Shown here: positions 1-5,961 of the stretch, in pieces
Layout: each line of letters begins with the position of its first letter
How positions within the stretch are numbered: position 1 is the first letter of the stretch
Notes under the pieces: model-generated
What the model was told of the DNA's origin: nothing
The model's input: only the letters and a program-made list of their open reading frames with translations
Database searches by the model: none
Position numbers and translations under genes: made by a program
Virus record (IMG/VR): IMGVR_UViG_3300020041_000017
Span: 1-5,961 of that record
Source: a virus
Length of the DNA: 5,961 nt
Reading direction: 5' to 3' (one strand)

Positions 1-49
1 CAGATACGAATTTTCGCGTATAACGGCGATGTTGGAGGAGGCAAGATAA
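1..49. repeat. Left copy of the 49-nt terminal direct repeat, which is an assembly overlap of a circular genome
   Basis: CAGATACGAATTTTCGCGTATAACGGCGATGTTGGAGGAGGCAAGATAA at 1-49 is identical to 5913-5961. Confidence 0.97.
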
Positions 50-664
50 AGGTGTAAGTTTTCCATCTACAGTAACATATTTATCCGAAATTTCTTCGGG
101 ATTAAACTCAATTTGTTTAGTAACATACTTGACACAATATCGAGCACGCTTGTGGGTAGCTTTCGATAACCAGACAAAGCCGAGGTCTCGAACGGCGGCG
201 CGAATAGTATTATAGAGAACATTTGTGCCAAACAAAAAGCCGTGAAAGTGCAAGCGAGGTTCATTTCCCATCTCTGGATGTGTGCCAAACTCCTGGAAAA
301 AAGCGTGCTTAAACGAATGGCCGAGCTTATGACGCAAACGCTCATTGAAACGGCGGATGAATCGAGAAGGATCGAGCAACGCCTCATTGTAATATCTCGG
401 GGCAATCGTTATTGTGACAAAAATAGCCTGCTGATTATCAGCCTTGCAACGAGAAAGCTCGCGCTCTAAACGCACGAACCAGTCATTACGCTGACGACGC
501 AGACAGTCTTCACACTTGCCGCACGGAACCATCAGCCATTGGCGCGCCACATCCCAAGGTCGAAAAGCCAAGGCAGACTTAGCGACGTCAGAACCATCAC
601 GACAAGGGTTCTTCTTATCGAAATAGCGCCGATTGCGTATCCATATGGGAGATGAACAGGGCAT
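1..664 (-). CDS. VP4: Replication initiation protein (rolling-circle HUH endonuclease, Microviridae VP4 / phiX A-like), N-terminal 221 codons plus the first base of codon 222. It continues at 5912.
   Basis: I translated the minus strand by hand in the frame with codon first bases at 664, 661 ... 1. The ATG is at 664-662, preceded by an in-frame TAA at 679-677. The translation reads MPCSSPIWIRNRRYFDKKNPC...LMVPCGKCEDCLRRQRNDWF, with the PCGKCEDC segment at 526-503. It continues with AIFVTITIAP, PRLHFHGFLFG (H-F-H at 250-242) and ARYCVKYVTKQ (Y-x-x-K-Y-V-x-K at 139-116). There is no stop before base 1. These are the hallmark motifs of Microviridae initiators, and the phiX174 A active site is Y-V-A-K-Y-V-N-K. 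The ORF is absent from the track because it has no in-window stop. Confidence 0.93.
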   Translation of the reverse strand, partial: MPCSSPIWIRNRRYFDKKNPCRDGSDVAKSALAFRPWDVARQWLMVPCGKCEDCLRRQRNDWFVRLERELSRCKADNQQAIFVTITIAPRYYNEALLDPSRFIRRFNERLRHKLGHSFKHAFFQEFGTHPEMGNEPRLHFHGFLFGTNVLYNTIRAAVRDLGFVWLSKATHKRARYCVKYVTKQIEFNPEEISDKYVTVDGKLTPLSCLLQHRRYTRKFVS

Positions 665-864
665 TAGAAAAGACTCTTAAGGCAATCAAACTTAATATAA
701 GGGTTAGTGCGACGACAGCGGTCAAGATAATCGTTCGCGGGAGCCTCGTCGATAAACCAAGCAACAACAACTCGCCTTCGGCCACGATACGCGCCAACCG
801 AATAGCGATGAGGTGCACTATTAATAACGGGAGAGTACCTAGGTCTGAAATCGAAATGATCCAT
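664..864 (-). CDS. Hypothetical Arg-rich 66-aa protein, translationally coupled to Rep. It is a possible DNA-binding or packaging protein.
   Basis: The product is MDHFDFRPRYSPVINSAPHRYSVGAYRGRRRVVVAWFIDEAPANDYLDRCRRTNPYIKFDCLKSLF, with 10 Arg and 2 Lys against 7 acidic residues. T dominates the codon third positions, as in VP1. Its TAA (666-664) overlaps the Rep ATG (664-662) as TAATG. The competing 116-aa ORF (615-965) is its +1-frame hydrophobic shadow. Confidence 0.62.
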   Translation of the reverse strand: MDHFDFRPRYSPVINSAPHRYSVGAYRGRRRVVVAWFIDEAPANDYLDRCRRTNPYIKFDCLKSLF

Positions 865-894
865 AATTTAAAAATTAGAGTATAACGGTAATAG

Positions 895-939
895 GCAAAT
901 AAAAGCGAACCCTCAGGGGAAGCATATCCCCTGGGGTTC
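895..939 (-). terminator. GC-rich stem-loop followed by a T-tract. It is an intrinsic-terminator-like element, or alternatively an ssDNA origin or structural hairpin.
   Basis: The plus strand reads GAACCC(T)CAGGGGA-agcata-TCCCCTGGGGTTC at 907-939. That is 13 bp (9 G:C), one bulged base (913) and a 6-nt loop. On the coding strand the stem is followed by GCTTTTATTTGCC (906-894). It lies in the 118-nt gap between ORF107 and ORF66. Confidence 0.6.
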
Positions 940-982
940 AACGAGTTAAAGAACTCTTCCACCAAGCGGGCGGGTCACCACT

Positions 983-1306
983 TTAGTGCCCTTTCCCTTC
1001 TTCTTTCGACGTGCTTTCATCGTGAGTCAAATCAGCATTAAACATAAGGACTAGTGTATTGTCGAAGAAATCAATCGAAAAATCAGGATACGCGATCAAA
1101 GCCTCTACGAGACTGGGGATATGACCGTGGTCAATATAGGGCGAAACTGAAATAGTAGAATGTTCTACATAGTCAGAGATGGGAGTGCGTGCAAGAGCAT
1201 CAAGATGAAGTGCTTCAAACTGACCATCTTTGATGTAGCCTACCTGTACAAAATCAACCTTGAGAGCCGGATTGACGCGACGAATAACAACATGAACATG
1301 TGTCAT
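983..1306 (-). CDS. Hypothetical acidic, His-rich 107-aa protein
   Basis: The ORF starts 21 nt after the ORF102 stop, has T-ending codon bias, and has the conserved TTTAAATT-NN-ACTACT-ATG start context. It has about 16 D/E, 7 K/R and 8 His. I recognise no family. Confidence 0.75.
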   Translation of the reverse strand: MTHVHVVIRRVNPALKVDFVQVGYIKDGQFEALHLDALARTPISDYVEHSTISVSPYIDHGHIPSLVEALIAYPDFSIDFFDNTLVLMFNADLTHDESTSKEEGKGH

Positions 1307-1327
1307 AGTAGTGTAATTTAAATGTTT

Positions 1328-1636
1328 TTAGAAAAAGCTAGCGTAAAAACGCGCCCAAGCCTCAGAGTGCTTGATCCAAAATTTGCAACCCTCGGGAGTC
1401 GAGGTAAACAAGAAAGCAGAAGAGATGAGAGAGGCGGGGCTGAGGCTAGAATGACCAAGAAGGTATTGGATTTGCTCGCGCAAACAGTCTCGGAAGGGTT
1501 TTGAGGACCCGAAGGCACGATCATAATTCGCCCGAAAAGCGGGATACACCTTTCGACGAATAAGCCACTCGACGAACATATAATCTATGACGTCGACCAG
1601 CAATTTAGCATCTTTAGAGCTTTTGTTCTTTTTCAT
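1328..1636 (-). CDS. Hypothetical basic 102-aa protein
   Basis: The ORF has T-ending codon bias and lies 26 nt downstream of the TATATTTG promoter element. It has a Lys-rich N-terminus (MKKNKSSKDAK) and about 16 K/R against 9 D/E. The C-terminal FLFTSTPEGCKFWIKHSEAW is a T-P-E-G-x-x-F-W type motif. I believe this recurs in small phage and Bacteroidota hypothetical proteins, but I cannot verify that here. Confidence 0.75.
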   Translation of the reverse strand: MKKNKSSKDAKLLVDVIDYMFVEWLIRRKVYPAFRANYDRAFGSSKPFRDCLREQIQYLLGHSSLSPASLISSAFLFTSTPEGCKFWIKHSEAWARFYASFF

Positions 1637-1662
1637 AAGAATACGGTTATTGGTTTACACTG

Positions 1663-1693
1663 CAAATATAACAACGAAAATCTAAAATGCAAA
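1663..1693 (-). promoter_or_regulatory. Bacteroides/Bacteroidota-type promoter with -33 TTTG and -7 TAnnTTTG
   Basis: The minus strand reads TTTG (1693-1690), then 19 nt, then TATATTTG (1670-1663), then 26 nt, then the ATG of ORF102 (1636). It matches the published Bacteroides consensus TTTG-N19-21-TAnnTTTG exactly and sits in a 72-nt intergenic spacer. Confidence 0.65.
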
Positions 1694-1708
1694 AAAAAAT
1701 CAAGAATC

Positions 1709-3076
1709 CTAACGATATTTACGGGTAGTACCATACGTGCTCGAGTAACCACTGCGATTCATTTCCGTTTTCGCGTAACCAACAAGGTTTCCTTTCGAAT
1801 CATAACGAGTTGTTAGCGAAGAGCCTGTGGAATTGTTAGTACCGCCACCAGCTGAAACAGTTTTAGCTGCACGGGACATGCCTCCACGGATTATGCCCGC
1901 GCCAGCGATACTAGCAGCCGCACCAACCAAAGCCTTAGAAATCTCAACATACGGATCAACCTTTGCGTTACGAAGAGCAATACGAGCCTGCTCAGGGAGA
2001 AAATCAGAAGCGTTTGCTTCATTCACAATAGTTTTATCATAAAAGTCCTTGAGCGACATCGAAACTTTGAAAGACTTAGGGCCAGGATTTCCACGAGTAA
2101 TAGGATTCTTACTTCTGAGATTTTCAGAGTACTGAGGATTCGGAATTTCGACCTCGAACCGCTTATCCCAATTACGTACAAGTTCGTTAGCAGCATCAAG
2201 ATTATCCAAACGCAAAGACTCTATAACCTCACGAGCTTGCTCACCAAGGATCTGATTAAGAACGGCCTGAGTTTTCATCATAAAAGCCTGCGCCGACATC
2301 ACAGCTCCTAAATTCTCGTTCTCGATATTCAGCCGGCGAACTTCCGCGGCAACAAGAGCAGCCTGAGTCTTTTTTTCGTCAATAGAACTCAAAAGAGTAG
2401 AGTCAGAGATAAAGAGGGCGTTCTTCTCAATGCTTTCCTGCACTTTAAGAACATCCGCAACGGCCAAATTATGCTTAGTAGCAGCCTGATCTAAAGCTAC
2501 ACGAGTCTGTGCCATAAGAGTGTACAACTGCTTACCTACATTTTGATCATTAATTGATTGAGCTTGAGCGTTATCGAGGTTAGCAGCAGCATCATTGCGA
2601 CTCACCGTTGATTGGGCAACCATATTCTGCGCAATGGCAGTAGGGTCGCCAGCGGAAAAAGCGCCAGGACTAACGGGAGCACCGCCGGAAGGCCCAGAGG
2701 CAGAGGGCATAGCAGCAGAACCTCCTGACATGGTGGCATTTACGCCAACGCCGGAAGAACCTAAAACCGCGGCAGGTGTCACACCAGCCTTCAAATAACG
2801 ATCAAAAACCTTCGAAGGGTCATTATAGGCGTTCTCGTAATCAAACTGTTTCTGCCAATTAGCGTAAGAAAGTTCAGATTGCTTCTGCATCTGCTCCAAA
2901 GCGTACTGCTGTTGAAGCTTCATCTGCTTTTGCTGAAAACGCCATTGGCGACGAGCATTCATGCCACCGAAAAGCTGACCAAGAGCGCCAGAGATTAGAC
3001 CGGTAGCGCCTGTAGAAGCGGCAGACTGGCCGAGAGCTTGACCAAAGGATGCGGCGGCGGCGACAGGAGTAGGCAT
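1709..3076 (-). CDS. VP2: DNA pilot / minor capsid protein (Microviridae VP2, phiX H-like), 455 aa
   Basis: The termini are Gly/Ala/Ser-rich (MPTPVAAAASFGQALGQSAASTGATGLISGALGQLFGG... and ...GAAASIAGAGIIRGG). A Q-rich helical segment is followed by YNDPSKVFDRYLKAGVTPAAVLG, which resembles the conserved N-P-x...AG-L/V-N/T-P block of VP2 proteins. The central region is long and predicted helical. It occupies the canonical position after VP1. Confidence 0.88.
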   Translation of the reverse strand: MPTPVAAAASFGQALGQSAASTGATGLISGALGQLFGGMNARRQWRFQQKQMKLQQQYALEQMQKQSELSYANWQKQFDYENAYNDPSKVFDRYLKAGVTPAAVLGSSGVGVNATMSGGSAAMPSASGPSGGAPVSPGAFSAGDPTAIAQNMVAQSTVSRNDAAANLDNAQAQSINDQNVGKQLYTLMAQTRVALDQAATKHNLAVADVLKVQESIEKNALFISDSTLLSSIDEKKTQAALVAAEVRRLNIENENLGAVMSAQAFMMKTQAVLNQILGEQAREVIESLRLDNLDAANELVRNWDKRFEVEIPNPQYSENLRSKNPITRGNPGPKSFKVSMSLKDFYDKTIVNEANASDFLPEQARIALRNAKVDPYVEISKALVGAAASIAGAGIIRGGMSRAAKTVSAGGGTNNSTGSSLTTRYDSKGNLVGYAKTEMNRSGYSSTYGTTRKYR

Positions 3077-3077
3077 A

Positions 3078-3269
3078 CTACATGTGAGTTAAGTTGTTAG
3101 AACGAATAATGTAATCGACACGCACAGTGTCAATATGAACGCCACTACGCTGCATTCTGGCCTGAGCTGAACAAGAGGCGAGAAAAAAAGCAGCTAAAGC
3201 AGCAACGATAGAAGAGATAAGCGTCCAAAACGCCTTCGACTTATAGAACGGTTGTTTAGTATCAGACAT
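3078..3269 (-). CDS. Small predicted lipoprotein, 63-aa precursor. It has a signal peptide with lipobox L-A-S-C (Cys33) and a 31-aa mature peptide.
   Basis: From the ATG at 3269 the product is MSDTKQPFYKSKAFW-TLISSIVAALAAFFLAS-C-SAQARMQRSGVHIDTVRVDYIIRSNNLTHM. This gives a Lys-containing n-region, a 17-residue hydrophobic core, and LASC at 3182-3171 matching [LVI][ASTVI][GAS]C. The TAG stop at 3080-3078 lies 1 nt before the VP2 ATG. I prefer the 3269 start to the upstream ATG at 3380 (100-aa form). The 3269 ATG carries the same TTTAAATT-NN-ACTACT-ATG context as ORF107. Confidence 0.7.
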   Translation of the reverse strand: MSDTKQPFYKSKAFWTLISSIVAALAAFFLASCSAQARMQRSGVHIDTVRVDYIIRSNNLTHM

Positions 3270-3402
3270 AGTAGTAGAATTTAAAGAACGATAGAAAAAT
3301 GCGCGGCCTCTCCTGCAGTCGTTACCAATAACCTTCAGCAATTCACGAACTCTTGCAAAAGGGGTCCGCGCACGTAGCATATATCGTCAAGTAAAGAATA
3401 CG

Positions 3403-3699
3403 CTATTTTTCTTCAGAATCGGCAAATTTAGAAGTAAGCTTCGATCTATCCAGCTCTGAATCAATAAGCTCCTGACCAACCTCAAGACCGTCAAACTTGT
3501 CCATACGAGAGAAGGAGTTAGGGTCGAAGTCGATTTCAGGATTGTAACTCTCGCCCTTATCAAAATCAGAAGGCTCTGCCGTCACGTCTGGACGGCCAGG
3601 AAGAATGTCAACAGATCCGGAACCATTAAGAACGGAGAGAATGCGTTGACCGCGAGAGACATAAGCGGGAGCGTCTTCAAGTAACCAATCAAGTGCCAT
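3403..3699 (-). CDS. Hypothetical highly acidic 98-aa protein. It is a possible internal scaffolding protein (VP3-like role), and that function is not established.
   Basis: The ORF starts 12 nt after the VP1 stop on the same strand and has T-ending codon bias. By my count it has about 22 D/E against 10 K/R. Its position beside the capsid gene fits a morphogenetic accessory protein. I recognise no family motif. Confidence 0.72.
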   Translation of the reverse strand: MALDWLLEDAPAYVSRGQRILSVLNGSGSVDILPGRPDVTAEPSDFDKGESYNPEIDFDPNSFSRMDKFDGLEVGQELIDSELDRSKLTSKFADSEEK

Positions 3700-3711
3700 A
3701 GGATTAATACA

Positions 3712-5502
3712 TTAGCGATTAGACAAACGGGTTGCAAACGTTTTATTAACCAAATTCTTCTTCTGAACGGAATACGAGAGATTAATAAAGAAATTATCTT
3801 CCTTCTTGGAGGCGAATGGCGAATTTACCTGATCGATGTCTACAAACAGAAGGGAATAGTACTGATTATAGCTCGCCGACAAAACGCGCTGCTGAACCCA
3901 ATAGGAATAGAGGGGTATAGCGTCAGCAGCGCCCTGGAACCGAGACAACTGACCGAGGACCTCATCGTAGGAAGATCGAAACTCGTTAAAGCAAGGCTCA
4001 TAGGCCACAGTTTCCGTAGAAGACGTAGTTCCGAAACCAAATTGAAATCCAGGAACATCCTGATATCCAATATCATTATAAATCGGATTGAAATAGTCAG
4101 AGCCGGTGTAATGAAGATAATCAGGGTAAATACCAGCCCAATAGTAGACAGGACGAATACTCAACATGTCAATCATATAGCCGGGCTCGCGAAAATAATA
4201 AGATTGACGACGACCAAGACGCTCGTTAAAAGCGATAGTACCGCCCTGCTGGCCGAGAGGACCATTGACGCTCGGACCGCTGAAATTATTTTGCCCCGCT
4301 TGATTCATAACAATCTGCACATTAACAGTCTGTGAAGCGCTAAAAAGCAGCTTAGGCCTATCAACGTGATCAATCTTCGACGCAAAAAAAGTTTCCAACC
4401 AATCACTATAACGGGAACCTCCAGCGCCAAGCAAGTCTTTATATTCTTGAAGCCGCGAAGCGATAGCCAACTGTGGTATAGTAGAAACGCCAGACATGGA
4501 AACACCTTCAGAGCTACCAACGGGAAGCAGACGACTATAACGGTCAGGGTTCGAAGGTATAACAGCCATCGGATGAGATACGAGGAATGCGCCAAGCGTA
4601 GTAACAGTTGTAGTACTAGGGCCAGTAGCAAACTGATTCGCGGGACCCGCAGCGGTCAGCGAGGTACTTCCAGGGTAAACAGTAGAAACTGGGTAACCAT
4701 TCTTAGAAGCGGTAATCGTAGCGCCAAGGTCTGAAAGCAATATCTGAGAAAAAAGGTTTCCTCTATTGTACGTATTGTTCGACGACGACACAGCCGAAGG
4801 ATAGAATTGGCTCTCAAAATAAGCATCCAAAAATTCAAGATTTCCGAATCTTTGCGAAAAGAACGTCTGGTTTTCACTGAACTGAAGAACATTATACGCG
4901 GCGCCAGTGCTGTTGGGAATGAAATACCAACTACCAGGCCAAGCGAAAGAGTAGAGACCCCACTGAGAGTAACCATAGTAATTACGAACGATATCCCAAT
5001 AAGCGAGATAAGAGTCGGCGGTGCACCAACCTAAAGGGTATCCCAATTGAGCGGTCGAAAGGTTGGCCGACATAGGGACATTGCTAGAAGTCGTCGATGG
5101 GATAGAAGCCGGAAGAACACGCAACCAACGGAGCAATGAATTGGAATAAGGATAATTGTTGGTAGTGAACGGATAGGATGCGGTCGACGAGGCGGCGATG
5201 AAATTCAAGCTCAAATCGTTCATATCAAACTTACTGCTGTTCGTTCTCATCTCAGGGTGATACAACTGAAGCGGTACCCAAAAACGATGAAGTCGGACGG
5301 TGTAAGGGTTGAACGTCGGGACAGCGAGAGGGTTACTGCGAACATCAATGCCTTGCTCAATAGACACACGATCTCGAGCATTAATAAAATCGATCCGCAC
5401 TGGGTACAAAATGCCCGGCGTGCATGTAAAGGCCTTACTCTCAGGAACATCGTAGCGAGAGTAGCCGTTTACAACATGTGAGATAAAAGGTTGTTTTCCC
5501 AT
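3712..5502 (-). CDS. VP1: Major capsid protein (Microviridae F/VP1 family), 596 aa
   Basis: This is the longest ORF. The N-terminal block FTCTPGILYPVRIDF...VRLHRFWVPLQLY and the central block GAGGSRYSDWLETFFASKIDHVDRPKLL correspond to conserved VP1 blocks. Gokushovirus VP1 has G-x-RY-x-E...F-G-V...RLQRPE, which I cite from memory. The codon third position is strongly T-biased. The ATG is 3 nt downstream of the Rep stop. Confidence 0.95.
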   Translation of the reverse strand: MGKQPFISHVVNGYSRYDVPESKAFTCTPGILYPVRIDFINARDRVSIEQGIDVRSNPLAVPTFNPYTVRLHRFWVPLQLYHPEMRTNSSKFDMNDLSLNFIAASSTASYPFTTNNYPYSNSLLRWLRVLPASIPSTTSSNVPMSANLSTAQLGYPLGWCTADSYLAYWDIVRNYYGYSQWGLYSFAWPGSWYFIPNSTGAAYNVLQFSENQTFFSQRFGNLEFLDAYFESQFYPSAVSSSNNTYNRGNLFSQILLSDLGATITASKNGYPVSTVYPGSTSLTAAGPANQFATGPSTTTVTTLGAFLVSHPMAVIPSNPDRYSRLLPVGSSEGVSMSGVSTIPQLAIASRLQEYKDLLGAGGSRYSDWLETFFASKIDHVDRPKLLFSASQTVNVQIVMNQAGQNNFSGPSVNGPLGQQGGTIAFNERLGRRQSYYFREPGYMIDMLSIRPVYYWAGIYPDYLHYTGSDYFNPIYNDIGYQDVPGFQFGFGTTSSTETVAYEPCFNEFRSSYDEVLGQLSRFQGAADAIPLYSYWVQQRVLSASYNQYYSLLFVDIDQVNSPFASKKEDNFFINLSYSVQKKNLVNKTFATRLSNR

Positions 5503-5505
5503 AAA

Positions 5506-5912
5506 TTAAGTAATTAGTTGAAGTTTATAATGATCTCGCCAAAAGCGAAGGATATCTAGGTCTAGCCAAGAAGGAGGGTCAAAGTCAGGCATCTTCCGCG
5601 AGGACGCAGAGAAGCGCATTATTTGCTTTTGTTCCCACGCATACGACGCTCTACAGGATACGGCGGAATTGAGATTGAACCGCTCAACGCACAAAGACAC
5701 AATACGCTTAACCAAAGGAGACTTGCTAAAATGTGCATAAGCATCAGCAGCAGCAATCGAACGCATAACTTCGTCTTCCGGTTTAAGATACTTAAGATAG
5801 TATCGAGGAATCGAGTAATTGTAATTGATACGCTTCTCACAATCAAAATAAGACCACGACGAAACACGAGCAGAAGGGCGAGGCATATAACCAAGAAAAT
5901 CACCAACGCCAG
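5506..5912 (-). CDS. VP4: Replication initiation protein, C-terminal part. It continues the ORF that leaves the window at base 1, and the total is 356 aa.
   Basis: The junction codon GCT is made of base 1 plus bases 5912 and 5911. The frame then reads GVGDFLGY and runs into the listed 126-aa ORF (MPRPSARV...KLQLIT), ending with TAA at 5508-5506. 664 + 407 nt = 1,071 nt = 356 codons plus stop. The same frame also stays open through the duplicated 5913-5961. Confidence 0.9.
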
Positions 5913-5961
5913 CAGATACGAATTTTCGCGTATAACGGCGATGTTGGAGGAGGCAAGATAA
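5913..5961. repeat. Right copy of the 49-nt terminal direct repeat, redundant with 1-49
   Basis: Base-for-base identity with 1-49, read directly from the sequence. Confidence 0.97.

Follow-up and report, generated by a model that had tools for sequence, protein, structure and literature searches.

What is the role of a small predicted lipoprotein that is encoded directly in front of the DNA pilot protein gene of a microvirus? The question is raised by the IMG/VR virus record IMGVR_UViG_3300020041_000017, of which positions 1 to 5,961 were analyzed (this whole stretch of 5,961 nucleotides [nt] is referred to here as the window), and specifically by an open reading frame (ORF) of 63 amino acids (aa) on its minus strand (3269..3078, stop codon 3078-3080 included). 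A preliminary description, made from the sequence alone, had seen in it a candidate for single-gene lysis or for the masking of a receptor. We found a gene that is almost certainly real and, judging from its conservation, a member of the core gene set of a mammalian-gut microvirus clade, and its product is very probably a lipoprotein. Its function is a more tentative matter, in which we lean toward lysis or egress.

A lipoprotein gene under purifying selection

Every element of a type II signal peptide listed in the preliminary description was recovered at the place given for it. The n-region (MSDTKQPFYKSK) carries three lysines (K5, K10, and K12) and is followed by an uncharged h-region of 17 residues (AFWTLISSIVAALAAFF) and by the lipobox L-A-S-C, with the Cys at position 33. 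On the minus strand, the signal peptide (residues 1 to 32, comprising the n-region, the h-region, and lipobox positions -3 to -1, L-A-S) extends over 3174..3269 and is delimited by the sequence rule, a predicted helix, and conservation. The Cys33 codon, the predicted site of lipidation and of cleavage by LspA, lies at 3171..3173, and the mature lipopeptide of 31 aa (CSAQARMQRSGVHIDTVRVDYIIRSNNLTHM) at 3081..3173. As criteria we used a positively charged n-region, an uncharged h-region, the lipobox [LVI][ASTVI][GAS]C, and a Cys within ca. 35 residues of the start. In our own implementation of the PROSITE PS51257-type lipoprotein rule, the ORF was positive through the match AALAAFFLASC. It was the sole lipobox-positive ORF of the genome, and any such ORF appeared in only 4.5% of shuffled genomes. 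Weak, subthreshold profile matches were obtained to LPAM_1 and to the signal region of YgdI/YgdR.

The mature part has a net charge of +2 and contains neither prolines nor extra cysteines. In Bacteroidota, surface-exposed lipoproteins are marked by an acidic stretch after the Cys; since here the mature N terminus (CSAQARMQRS) is basic and no acidic residues directly follow the Cys, the lipopeptide should face the periplasm and not reach the cell surface. A single spacer base (3077) separates the stop codon (TAG, 3080..3078) from the ATG of VP2 (from 3076), the 1-nt distance that had been described before, and because of it we presume that the gene is expressed together with VP2 and thus with the structural genes.

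A total of 80 related IMG/VR genomes (L001 to L080) were fetched by means of VP2, and selection was computed on the 70 with the same ORF length of 63 codons. Among them, the ratio of nonsynonymous to synonymous substitutions (dN/dS) was 0.06 with synonymous sites near saturation (synonymous divergence, pS, of 0.61), and nucleotide diversity at the first, second, and third codon positions was 0.09, 0.05, and 0.44, respectively, while the two alternative frames over the gene gave dN/dS values of ca. 2.8. The signal peptide was under stronger constraint than the mature part, both in dN/dS (0.044 versus 0.078) and in pairwise identity (0.66 versus 0.42), a pattern that is unusual for a signal peptide. 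The gene was found, in one copy each, in 73 of the 80 loci, the other 7 being cut off at that region. Six further GenBank relatives, missed by tblastn with the protein type of the window (type A), all carried a 65-aa version (type B) at the same place. Syntenic lipobox ORFs upstream of VP2, which the preliminary description had suggested looking for, thus exist in every covered relative, and Cys33 was invariant in an alignment of 26 family members. The median identity to the window was 91% for the lipoprotein, equal to that of Rep, compared with 69% for VP1, 61% for orf107, and 51% for orf102; among the relatives, identities ranged from 62 to 95% in VP1 and from 47 to 90% in VP2.

In T-rich frames, short hydrophobic ORFs are easily formed, and the shuffled genomes that contained a lipobox ORF (the above-mentioned 4.5%) might suggest a chance ORF or a misannotation with no protein product. 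However, a dN/dS of 0.06 at saturated synonymous sites, a diversity of 0.44 at third positions versus 0.05 to 0.09 at the others, and conservation of the gene in several lineages and in Alistipes prophages make such an origin hardly credible.

Between the versions of 63 and 100 aa that had been put forward for this gene, the shorter start proved to be the correct one. The 37 extra codons have no codon periodicity and are disrupted in relatives by frame-breaking single-base indels, and the extension frame is closed by stops in about 20 of 66 loci, so the 100-aa version was rejected as an artifact. Nearly all gene calls in the public records (P0001 to P0120) are nevertheless of 100 aa (window 3078-3380, minus strand), because gene finders chose the longest ORF, and their first 37 residues are a translated noncoding element. 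This analysis corrects these public gene models.

The noncoding element that holds the false extension (about 3280..3419, minus strand) lies directly upstream of the gene and is structured, as indicated by conservation and covariation. Its median nucleotide identity over 74 loci was 94%, while nearby synonymous sites were saturated. It was still 88 to 90% identical, with nothing annotated beneath it, in otherwise diverged microviruses that have no other megablast-detectable DNA similarity to the window and whose proteins are only ca. 65 to 80% identical. In the inner hairpin, 4 of 9 pairs showed compensatory changes, and 97% of cells were paired; none of 500 shuffles gave covariation as good, and slid controls were near zero. 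There is also an outer GC stem, followed by a T-run. An Rfam search of the element gave no match. It may act as a leader or terminator for the transcript of the lipoprotein and VP2 genes or as a single-strand DNA signal, e.g., a complementary-strand origin.

The surroundings bear out the microvirus context that had been proposed. A 49-nt exact terminal duplication (window 1-49 = 5913-5961) indicates a complete circular genome of 5,912 nt, with all genes on the minus strand. These are rep (356 aa), which wraps around the window ends and is split across them; VP1 (5502..3712), with a Pfam match to Phage_F; an acidic 98-aa ORF (orf98, 3699..3403); after a noncoding stretch, the 63-aa prolipoprotein gene, delimited by its ORF and translation, by purifying selection, and by its presence in relatives; VP2, the DNA pilot protein (3076..1709), with a pilot-protein PHROG match and the same adjacency to the lipoprotein gene in relatives; and two ORFs of 102 and 107 aa (orf102 and orf107) that come after VP2 in the gene order. 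Apart from the capsid and pilot matches, Pfam and PHROGs searches found no muralytic or other recognizable domain in any ORF of the window, in agreement with the earlier statement that the genome has no recognizable endolysin. In GenBank, the closest records come from microviruses of pig, rodent, lemur, and tortoise feces.

Two side observations concern the neighboring genes. Compared with L001 to L080, the related genomes are mosaic: VP1 falls into two classes, ca. 68% and ca. 91% identical to that of the window; the identity of VP2 stays at 83 to 91% over the first ca. 172 residues, and that of the remainder ranges down to <50%; and the VP1 and VP2 classes are inherited independently of one another and of Rep. 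Just upstream of rep, overlapping the end of orf107, there is also a 24-aa basic ORF (MKARRKKKGKGTKVVTRPLGGRVL; 1020..946, minus strand), which we take to resemble the peptides (J) that serve in DNA packaging in phiX174-like phages. In 83 of 103 loci this ORF is kept, with exchanges between K and R, and the synonymous diversity of the overlapped orf107 end goes down to 0.06.

Protein family, predicted fold, and hosts

When 1.8 billion representative proteins were searched exhaustively without a profile, 53 relatives of the lipoprotein were retrieved, and the family was also present in other microvirus lineages with different gene orders, prophages included. In the alignment of 26 diverse members, five columns were invariant (Met1, Cys33, Gly43, His45, and Asp47), and residue -1 to the Cys was always G, A, or S; the lipobox features hold in type-B proteins too. 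The same signal peptide (…SKKFWTLVAAIVAALxAFF…) carries a type-A hairpin, a type-B hairpin, or other tails, with identities of 61 to 78% between types whose mature parts cannot be aligned. Three members have the type-A hairpin and the lipobox behind unrelated signal peptides, and since they keep both, the Cys and the hairpin are each under selection of their own.

An AlphaFold model of the lipoprotein, built with the 26-row alignment, had a mean predicted local distance difference test (pLDDT) score of 76. It consists of a helix over residues 12 to 32 (pLDDT of ca. 91) and a beta-hairpin with strands at residues 33 to 42 and 48 to 57. The mature peptide is thus predicted to be an amphipathic hairpin, with one hydrophobic face (A35, A37, M39, V49, V51, Y53, and I55) and one polar face when both are read from the sequence. 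At its tip lies G43-V-H45-I-D47 (3129..3143, minus strand), in which G, H, and D are invariant in the type-A family; it is the model that places this G-x-H-x-D motif at the turn. The structure prediction proposed in the preliminary description gave a signal helix and a single hairpin, but fold searches found no relative outside the family: neither Foldseek against PDB nor a PDB profile search gave a match, and Foldseek against BFVD retrieved nothing but fellow members of the family, under the name "Uncharacterized protein." Likewise, Pfam, NCBIfam, and PHROGs searches at E values of up to 10 gave only noise at the level of the signal peptide.

According to the preliminary description, either function would be undescribed in a Bacteroidota-type microvirus. 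Our literature search found no paper on a microvirus lipoprotein, but an automated label already exists: one GenBank third-party annotation record calls a homologue "lipoprotein," although UniProt and BFVD list the family as uncharacterized. Unassigned proteins of ca. 65 aa common to several microvirus families have been mentioned by Kirchberger et al. (PMC9239249). The bare observation is therefore not new, since the label was already in GenBank; the family-level analysis is.

In a scan of one genome per prokaryotic species, which used a narrower alignment than the 26-member one, the family appeared only in two Alistipes genomes, in both cases inside microvirus prophages. One of these hosts is a cultured strain, A. 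montrealensis kh20. Two metagenome contigs showed the same prophage-like arrangement with bacterial genes on the flanks. These relatives support the Bacteroidota-type host that had been suggested. In the prophage lineages, the lipoprotein gene is upstream of rep rather than VP2 and is the first gene after a long attachment-side noncoding region; its earlier portrayal as wedged between morphogenetic genes consequently fits the clade of the window but not the family as a whole. Two of the prophage loci (L084 and L088, the latter from Alistipes) have a TAnnTTTG box of the Bacteroidota type at a distance of 38 to 46 nt before the gene, although overall such a match is near chance level and the clade of the window does not conserve the box.

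In a sister lineage to which the A. montrealensis kh20 prophage belongs (L083:1512-2114, L088:8001-8609, L091 to L096, and L099), the lipoprotein ORF lacks a stop after the hairpin. It continues for ca. 130 codons through a conserved gene that is read in a different frame, and its end is the basic, J-like tail also seen in the 24-aa ORF, here RRGGRRGK.RPKGTK.IPLGGSHL. This may yield a fusion of ca. 190 aa, or the tail may be translated by itself. In one close genome pair compared by eye, amino acid changes were about equally frequent in both overlapping frames.

Lysis, exclusion, and other possible functions

We tentatively favor, at somewhat less than an even chance, a lipoprotein that is the lysis or egress effector of the phage or an essential part of that effector. 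The prolipoprotein would be exported by Sec, Lgt would add diacylglycerol to Cys33, and LspA would cut between Ser32 and Cys33, steps that follow standard lipoprotein biogenesis. What is left would be a periplasmic lipopeptide of 31 aa that has its anchor either in the inner membrane or, within the outer membrane, in the inner leaflet. Accumulating together with VP2, such a small lytic lipoprotein would break the integrity of the envelope from the periplasmic side; the hairpin tip could bind a conserved component of host envelope biogenesis, and the unusually conserved signal peptide may itself contribute, as it does in colicin lysis proteins.

Several properties favor lysis or egress. The gene is universally retained as a single copy in the covered genomes of the clade, at Rep-like conservation, in a genome of 5.9 kb. 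It is also inherited with the Rep backbone, as would be expected if its target were a property of the host and not a receptor: type-B genomes have a Rep 64 to 78% identical to that of the window, and type-A genomes have one 77 to 96% identical. Furthermore, coexpression with VP2 is presumed, and no muralytic enzyme was found in any ORF. By analogy with the stable and active signal peptide of colicin lysis proteins, the sequence-specific constraint on the signal peptide may point in the same direction. Among microviruses, only phiX174 has a known lysis mechanism (PMC3394797).

Lysis had originally been argued by elimination, with the lipoprotein as the sole envelope-directed protein of the genome, and this argument did not survive. 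A very hydrophobic 119-aa ORF lies in the +1 frame of rep and crosses the circular join (1-66 plus 5619-5912, minus strand), with three hydrophobic segments and a basic tail. Its ATG comes directly after a stop, its start and end codons are the same in 56 of 56 distinct rep sequences, and it is intact in 77 of 78 loci; homologues are present in type-B genomes. Over rep codons 196 to 315, third-position diversity drops from ca. 0.5 to 0.08 to 0.18 (one window of 0.30), which coincides with the overprinted ORF at rep codons 200 to 319, and no comparable dip was seen in VP1, VP2, orf98, or orf102. Profile searches gave no family match. The architecture is analogous to that of phiX174 E or K, and the product is a candidate for a lysis or membrane protein. 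Because this conserved protein exists, elimination no longer points to the lipoprotein alone. The earlier statement that no ORF resembles E holds for sequence, for which there was no match, but not for architecture, since the 119-aa ORF is overprinted in rep much as E is in its own host gene. A correspondence between hairpin type and overprinted protein was considered and rejected, as the overprinted protein is nearly the same in L098, which carries type A, and in L024, which carries type B.

Other points besides weigh against a lytic lipoprotein. We know of no single-gene lysis protein that is a lipoprotein, and the overprinted 119-aa protein weakens the case as a rival candidate. It is further weakened by the discrete mature types (A, B, and others) on one signal peptide, given that specificity classes of an exclusion protein would show this pattern too, and by the TAnnTTTG box in two prophage loci, a match close to chance that would allow expression in a lysogen. 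Profile and fold searches revealed no resemblance, either in sequence or in fold, to colicin lysis proteins, entericidin, or Rz1. Finally, plaques are formed by phiHBP1, the one Bacteroides microvirus in culture (PMC13064476), and our ORF scan found no lipobox ORF on its coding strand, so that the lipoprotein is not a general requirement of Bacteroidota microviruses.

The alternative to which we give most weight, possible although on the unlikely side, is a block to entry: in an infected or lysogenic cell, the periplasmic lipopeptide would bind a conserved envelope hub rather than a specific receptor (candidates are TonB, the plug of a TonB-dependent transporter, or the incoming VP2 conduit), so that later phages could not deliver their DNA and progeny would not be wasted on debris or vesicles. 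The logic resembles that of T5 Llp, phi80 Cor, and TP-J34 Ltp, and Llp offers a precedent in the inner leaflet of the outer membrane, where it binds FhuA (PMC9586334), but no homology to Llp or Cor was found. Exclusion would fit the relatives in Alistipes prophages and in contigs with bacterial flanks, where the gene is the first after the attachment-side noncoding region, and the near-chance TAnnTTTG box 38 to 46 nt upstream in two prophage loci; it would also fit a mature domain that occurs, behind one signal peptide, as several discrete types, each of them frozen internally. As a lead only, residues 46 to 51 (I-D-T-V-R-V, window 3129-3134 region) resemble VDEVVV, the TonB box of the Bacteroides SusC transporter Bt1763 (residues 81 to 86; PMC7782687), and in types A and B alike the second strand opens with a D-[TS]-hydrophobic motif; yet this likeness is a six-residue motif noticed post hoc. 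Universal, Rep-like retention in a 5.9-kb genome also exceeds what is usual for accessory exclusion genes. Receptor masking of the Llp kind, as put forward in the preliminary description, predicts covariation with VP1 and VP2, an indirect test in which these two proteins stand in for the receptor-binding determinant of these phages. [quoted passage not shown] No such covariation was seen: the type-A protein is 79 to 98% identical across genomes whose VP1 is 62 to 95% and VP2 47 to 90% identical, and L024, whose VP1 is 91% identical to that of the window, carries type B. Since the lipoprotein type tracks Rep and not VP1/VP2, receptor-specific masking is not supported, although exclusion aimed at a conserved hub would escape this objection.

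Two further readings give the lipoprotein a different place in lysis. It might be the accessory half of a two-part system, in which the overprinted polytopic 119-aa protein kills at the inner membrane and the lipoprotein, in the manner of a spanin or antiholin, completes the disruption of the envelope at the outer membrane or times and regulates the process. Small outer membrane lipoproteins are indeed the usual last-step lysis factors in phages of Gram-negative bacteria, and the same genomes, type B included, conserve both of these membrane proteins. However, the two do not covary (the L098 and L024 comparison above), neither an endolysin nor an i-spanin-like partner (single pass, with a long periplasmic domain) was present among the coding-strand ORFs, and the mature peptide lacks the prolines or extra cysteines of Rz1, so we regard this arrangement as quite improbable. 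Slightly more doubtful still is a protein that stays unprocessed, with the N-terminal helix as both membrane anchor and effector, as the phiX174 E helix is on MraY, and the hairpin as a replaceable periplasmic tail. Conservation is higher in the hydrophobic segment than in the C-terminal part, types with unrelated tails have this segment in common, the C-terminal part of E is likewise replaceable, and Cys33 is near the upper limit of the usual length of lipoprotein signal peptides. Against this stand the invariant Cys, the constant G, A, or S at -1, and the three members that keep the lipobox and the type-A hairpin behind unrelated signal peptides. Some function other than all of these takes up the remainder of our estimates.

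Returning to lysis by the lipoprotein itself, a bolder form of this reading, which we consider unlikely but worth stating, is that the lipopeptide is the first single-gene lysis protein of lipoprotein type, a phage "protein antibiotic" whose G-x-H-x-D tip, acting from the periplasmic side, blocks a defined and conserved step in the biogenesis of the Bacteroidota envelope or in energy coupling. The target could be a component linked to peptidoglycan, Lol/Bam, or TonB, and, if true, there would be a druggable target in a phylum without such a tool. In the mammalian gut, microviruses rank among the most abundant phages, and a whole clade of them keeps a lipid-anchored peptide of 31 residues as tightly as Rep. 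As a lysis factor, it would represent a new class of lysis protein and point to a vulnerable periplasmic target in Bacteroidota; as an exclusion factor, it would be the first for microviruses and would bear on phage-phage competition in the gut. There are now two conserved membrane proteins, the lipoprotein and the one embedded in rep, as candidates, and a cultured lysogen, A. montrealensis kh20, carries a relative of the former.

Comparison with known systems

In order to put the lipoprotein into perspective, we compared it with four kinds of small envelope proteins. The closest in their possible working are the colicin lysis proteins and Llp/Cor, although it is a member of neither. Colicin lysis proteins (bacteriocin release proteins, Pfam Lysis_col) are likewise very small prolipoproteins with a mature lipopeptide of ca. 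30 residues, encoded beside and expressed with the cargo to be released. Their stable signal peptide is active, and they act through outer membrane phospholipase A; the signal peptide is thus important there and unusually conserved here. On the other hand, they release proteins and not particles of 25 to 30 nm, they belong to a different host phylum, and they have no counterpart of the predicted hairpin with its G-x-H-x-D tip. Searches of Pfam, NCBIfam, and PHROGs at E values of up to 10 gave no match to Lysis_col or entericidin.

T5 Llp and the phi80-type Cor proteins are also small, periplasm-facing phage lipoproteins whose gene lies beside a host entry gene (PMC9586334). Llp differs in being twice the size and folded and in acting on one receptor, paired with a matching receptor-binding protein, and neither a profile match nor a Foldseek PDB match linked the lipoprotein to Llp or Cor. 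The Rz1-type o-spanins are small outer membrane lipoproteins of phages with Gram-negative hosts, with a mature part of 30 to 40 residues, but the lipoprotein is not proline rich, has no cysteine for intermolecular disulfides, and lacks the context, as domain searches and the coding-strand ORFs revealed no i-spanin partner, endolysin, or holin cassette in the window genome.

With phiX174 E, the lipoprotein shares the virus order, a small size, targeting to the membrane, a genome without a muralytic enzyme, and a conserved N-terminal hydrophobic helix under stronger constraint than the remainder. E itself is no lipoprotein; it is encoded by an overprint of gene D and has its target, MraY, on the cytoplasmic side. 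The lipoprotein gene, in contrast, occupies its own coding space with no overlap with another gene and has an invariant lipobox, and no PHROG or Pfam match indicated homology to E. In genetic architecture, the ORF overprinted in rep is the closer analogue of E. The product of the 63-aa gene is best described as a phage-encoded small lipoprotein, with a new hairpin motif, in a virus family where none has been described.

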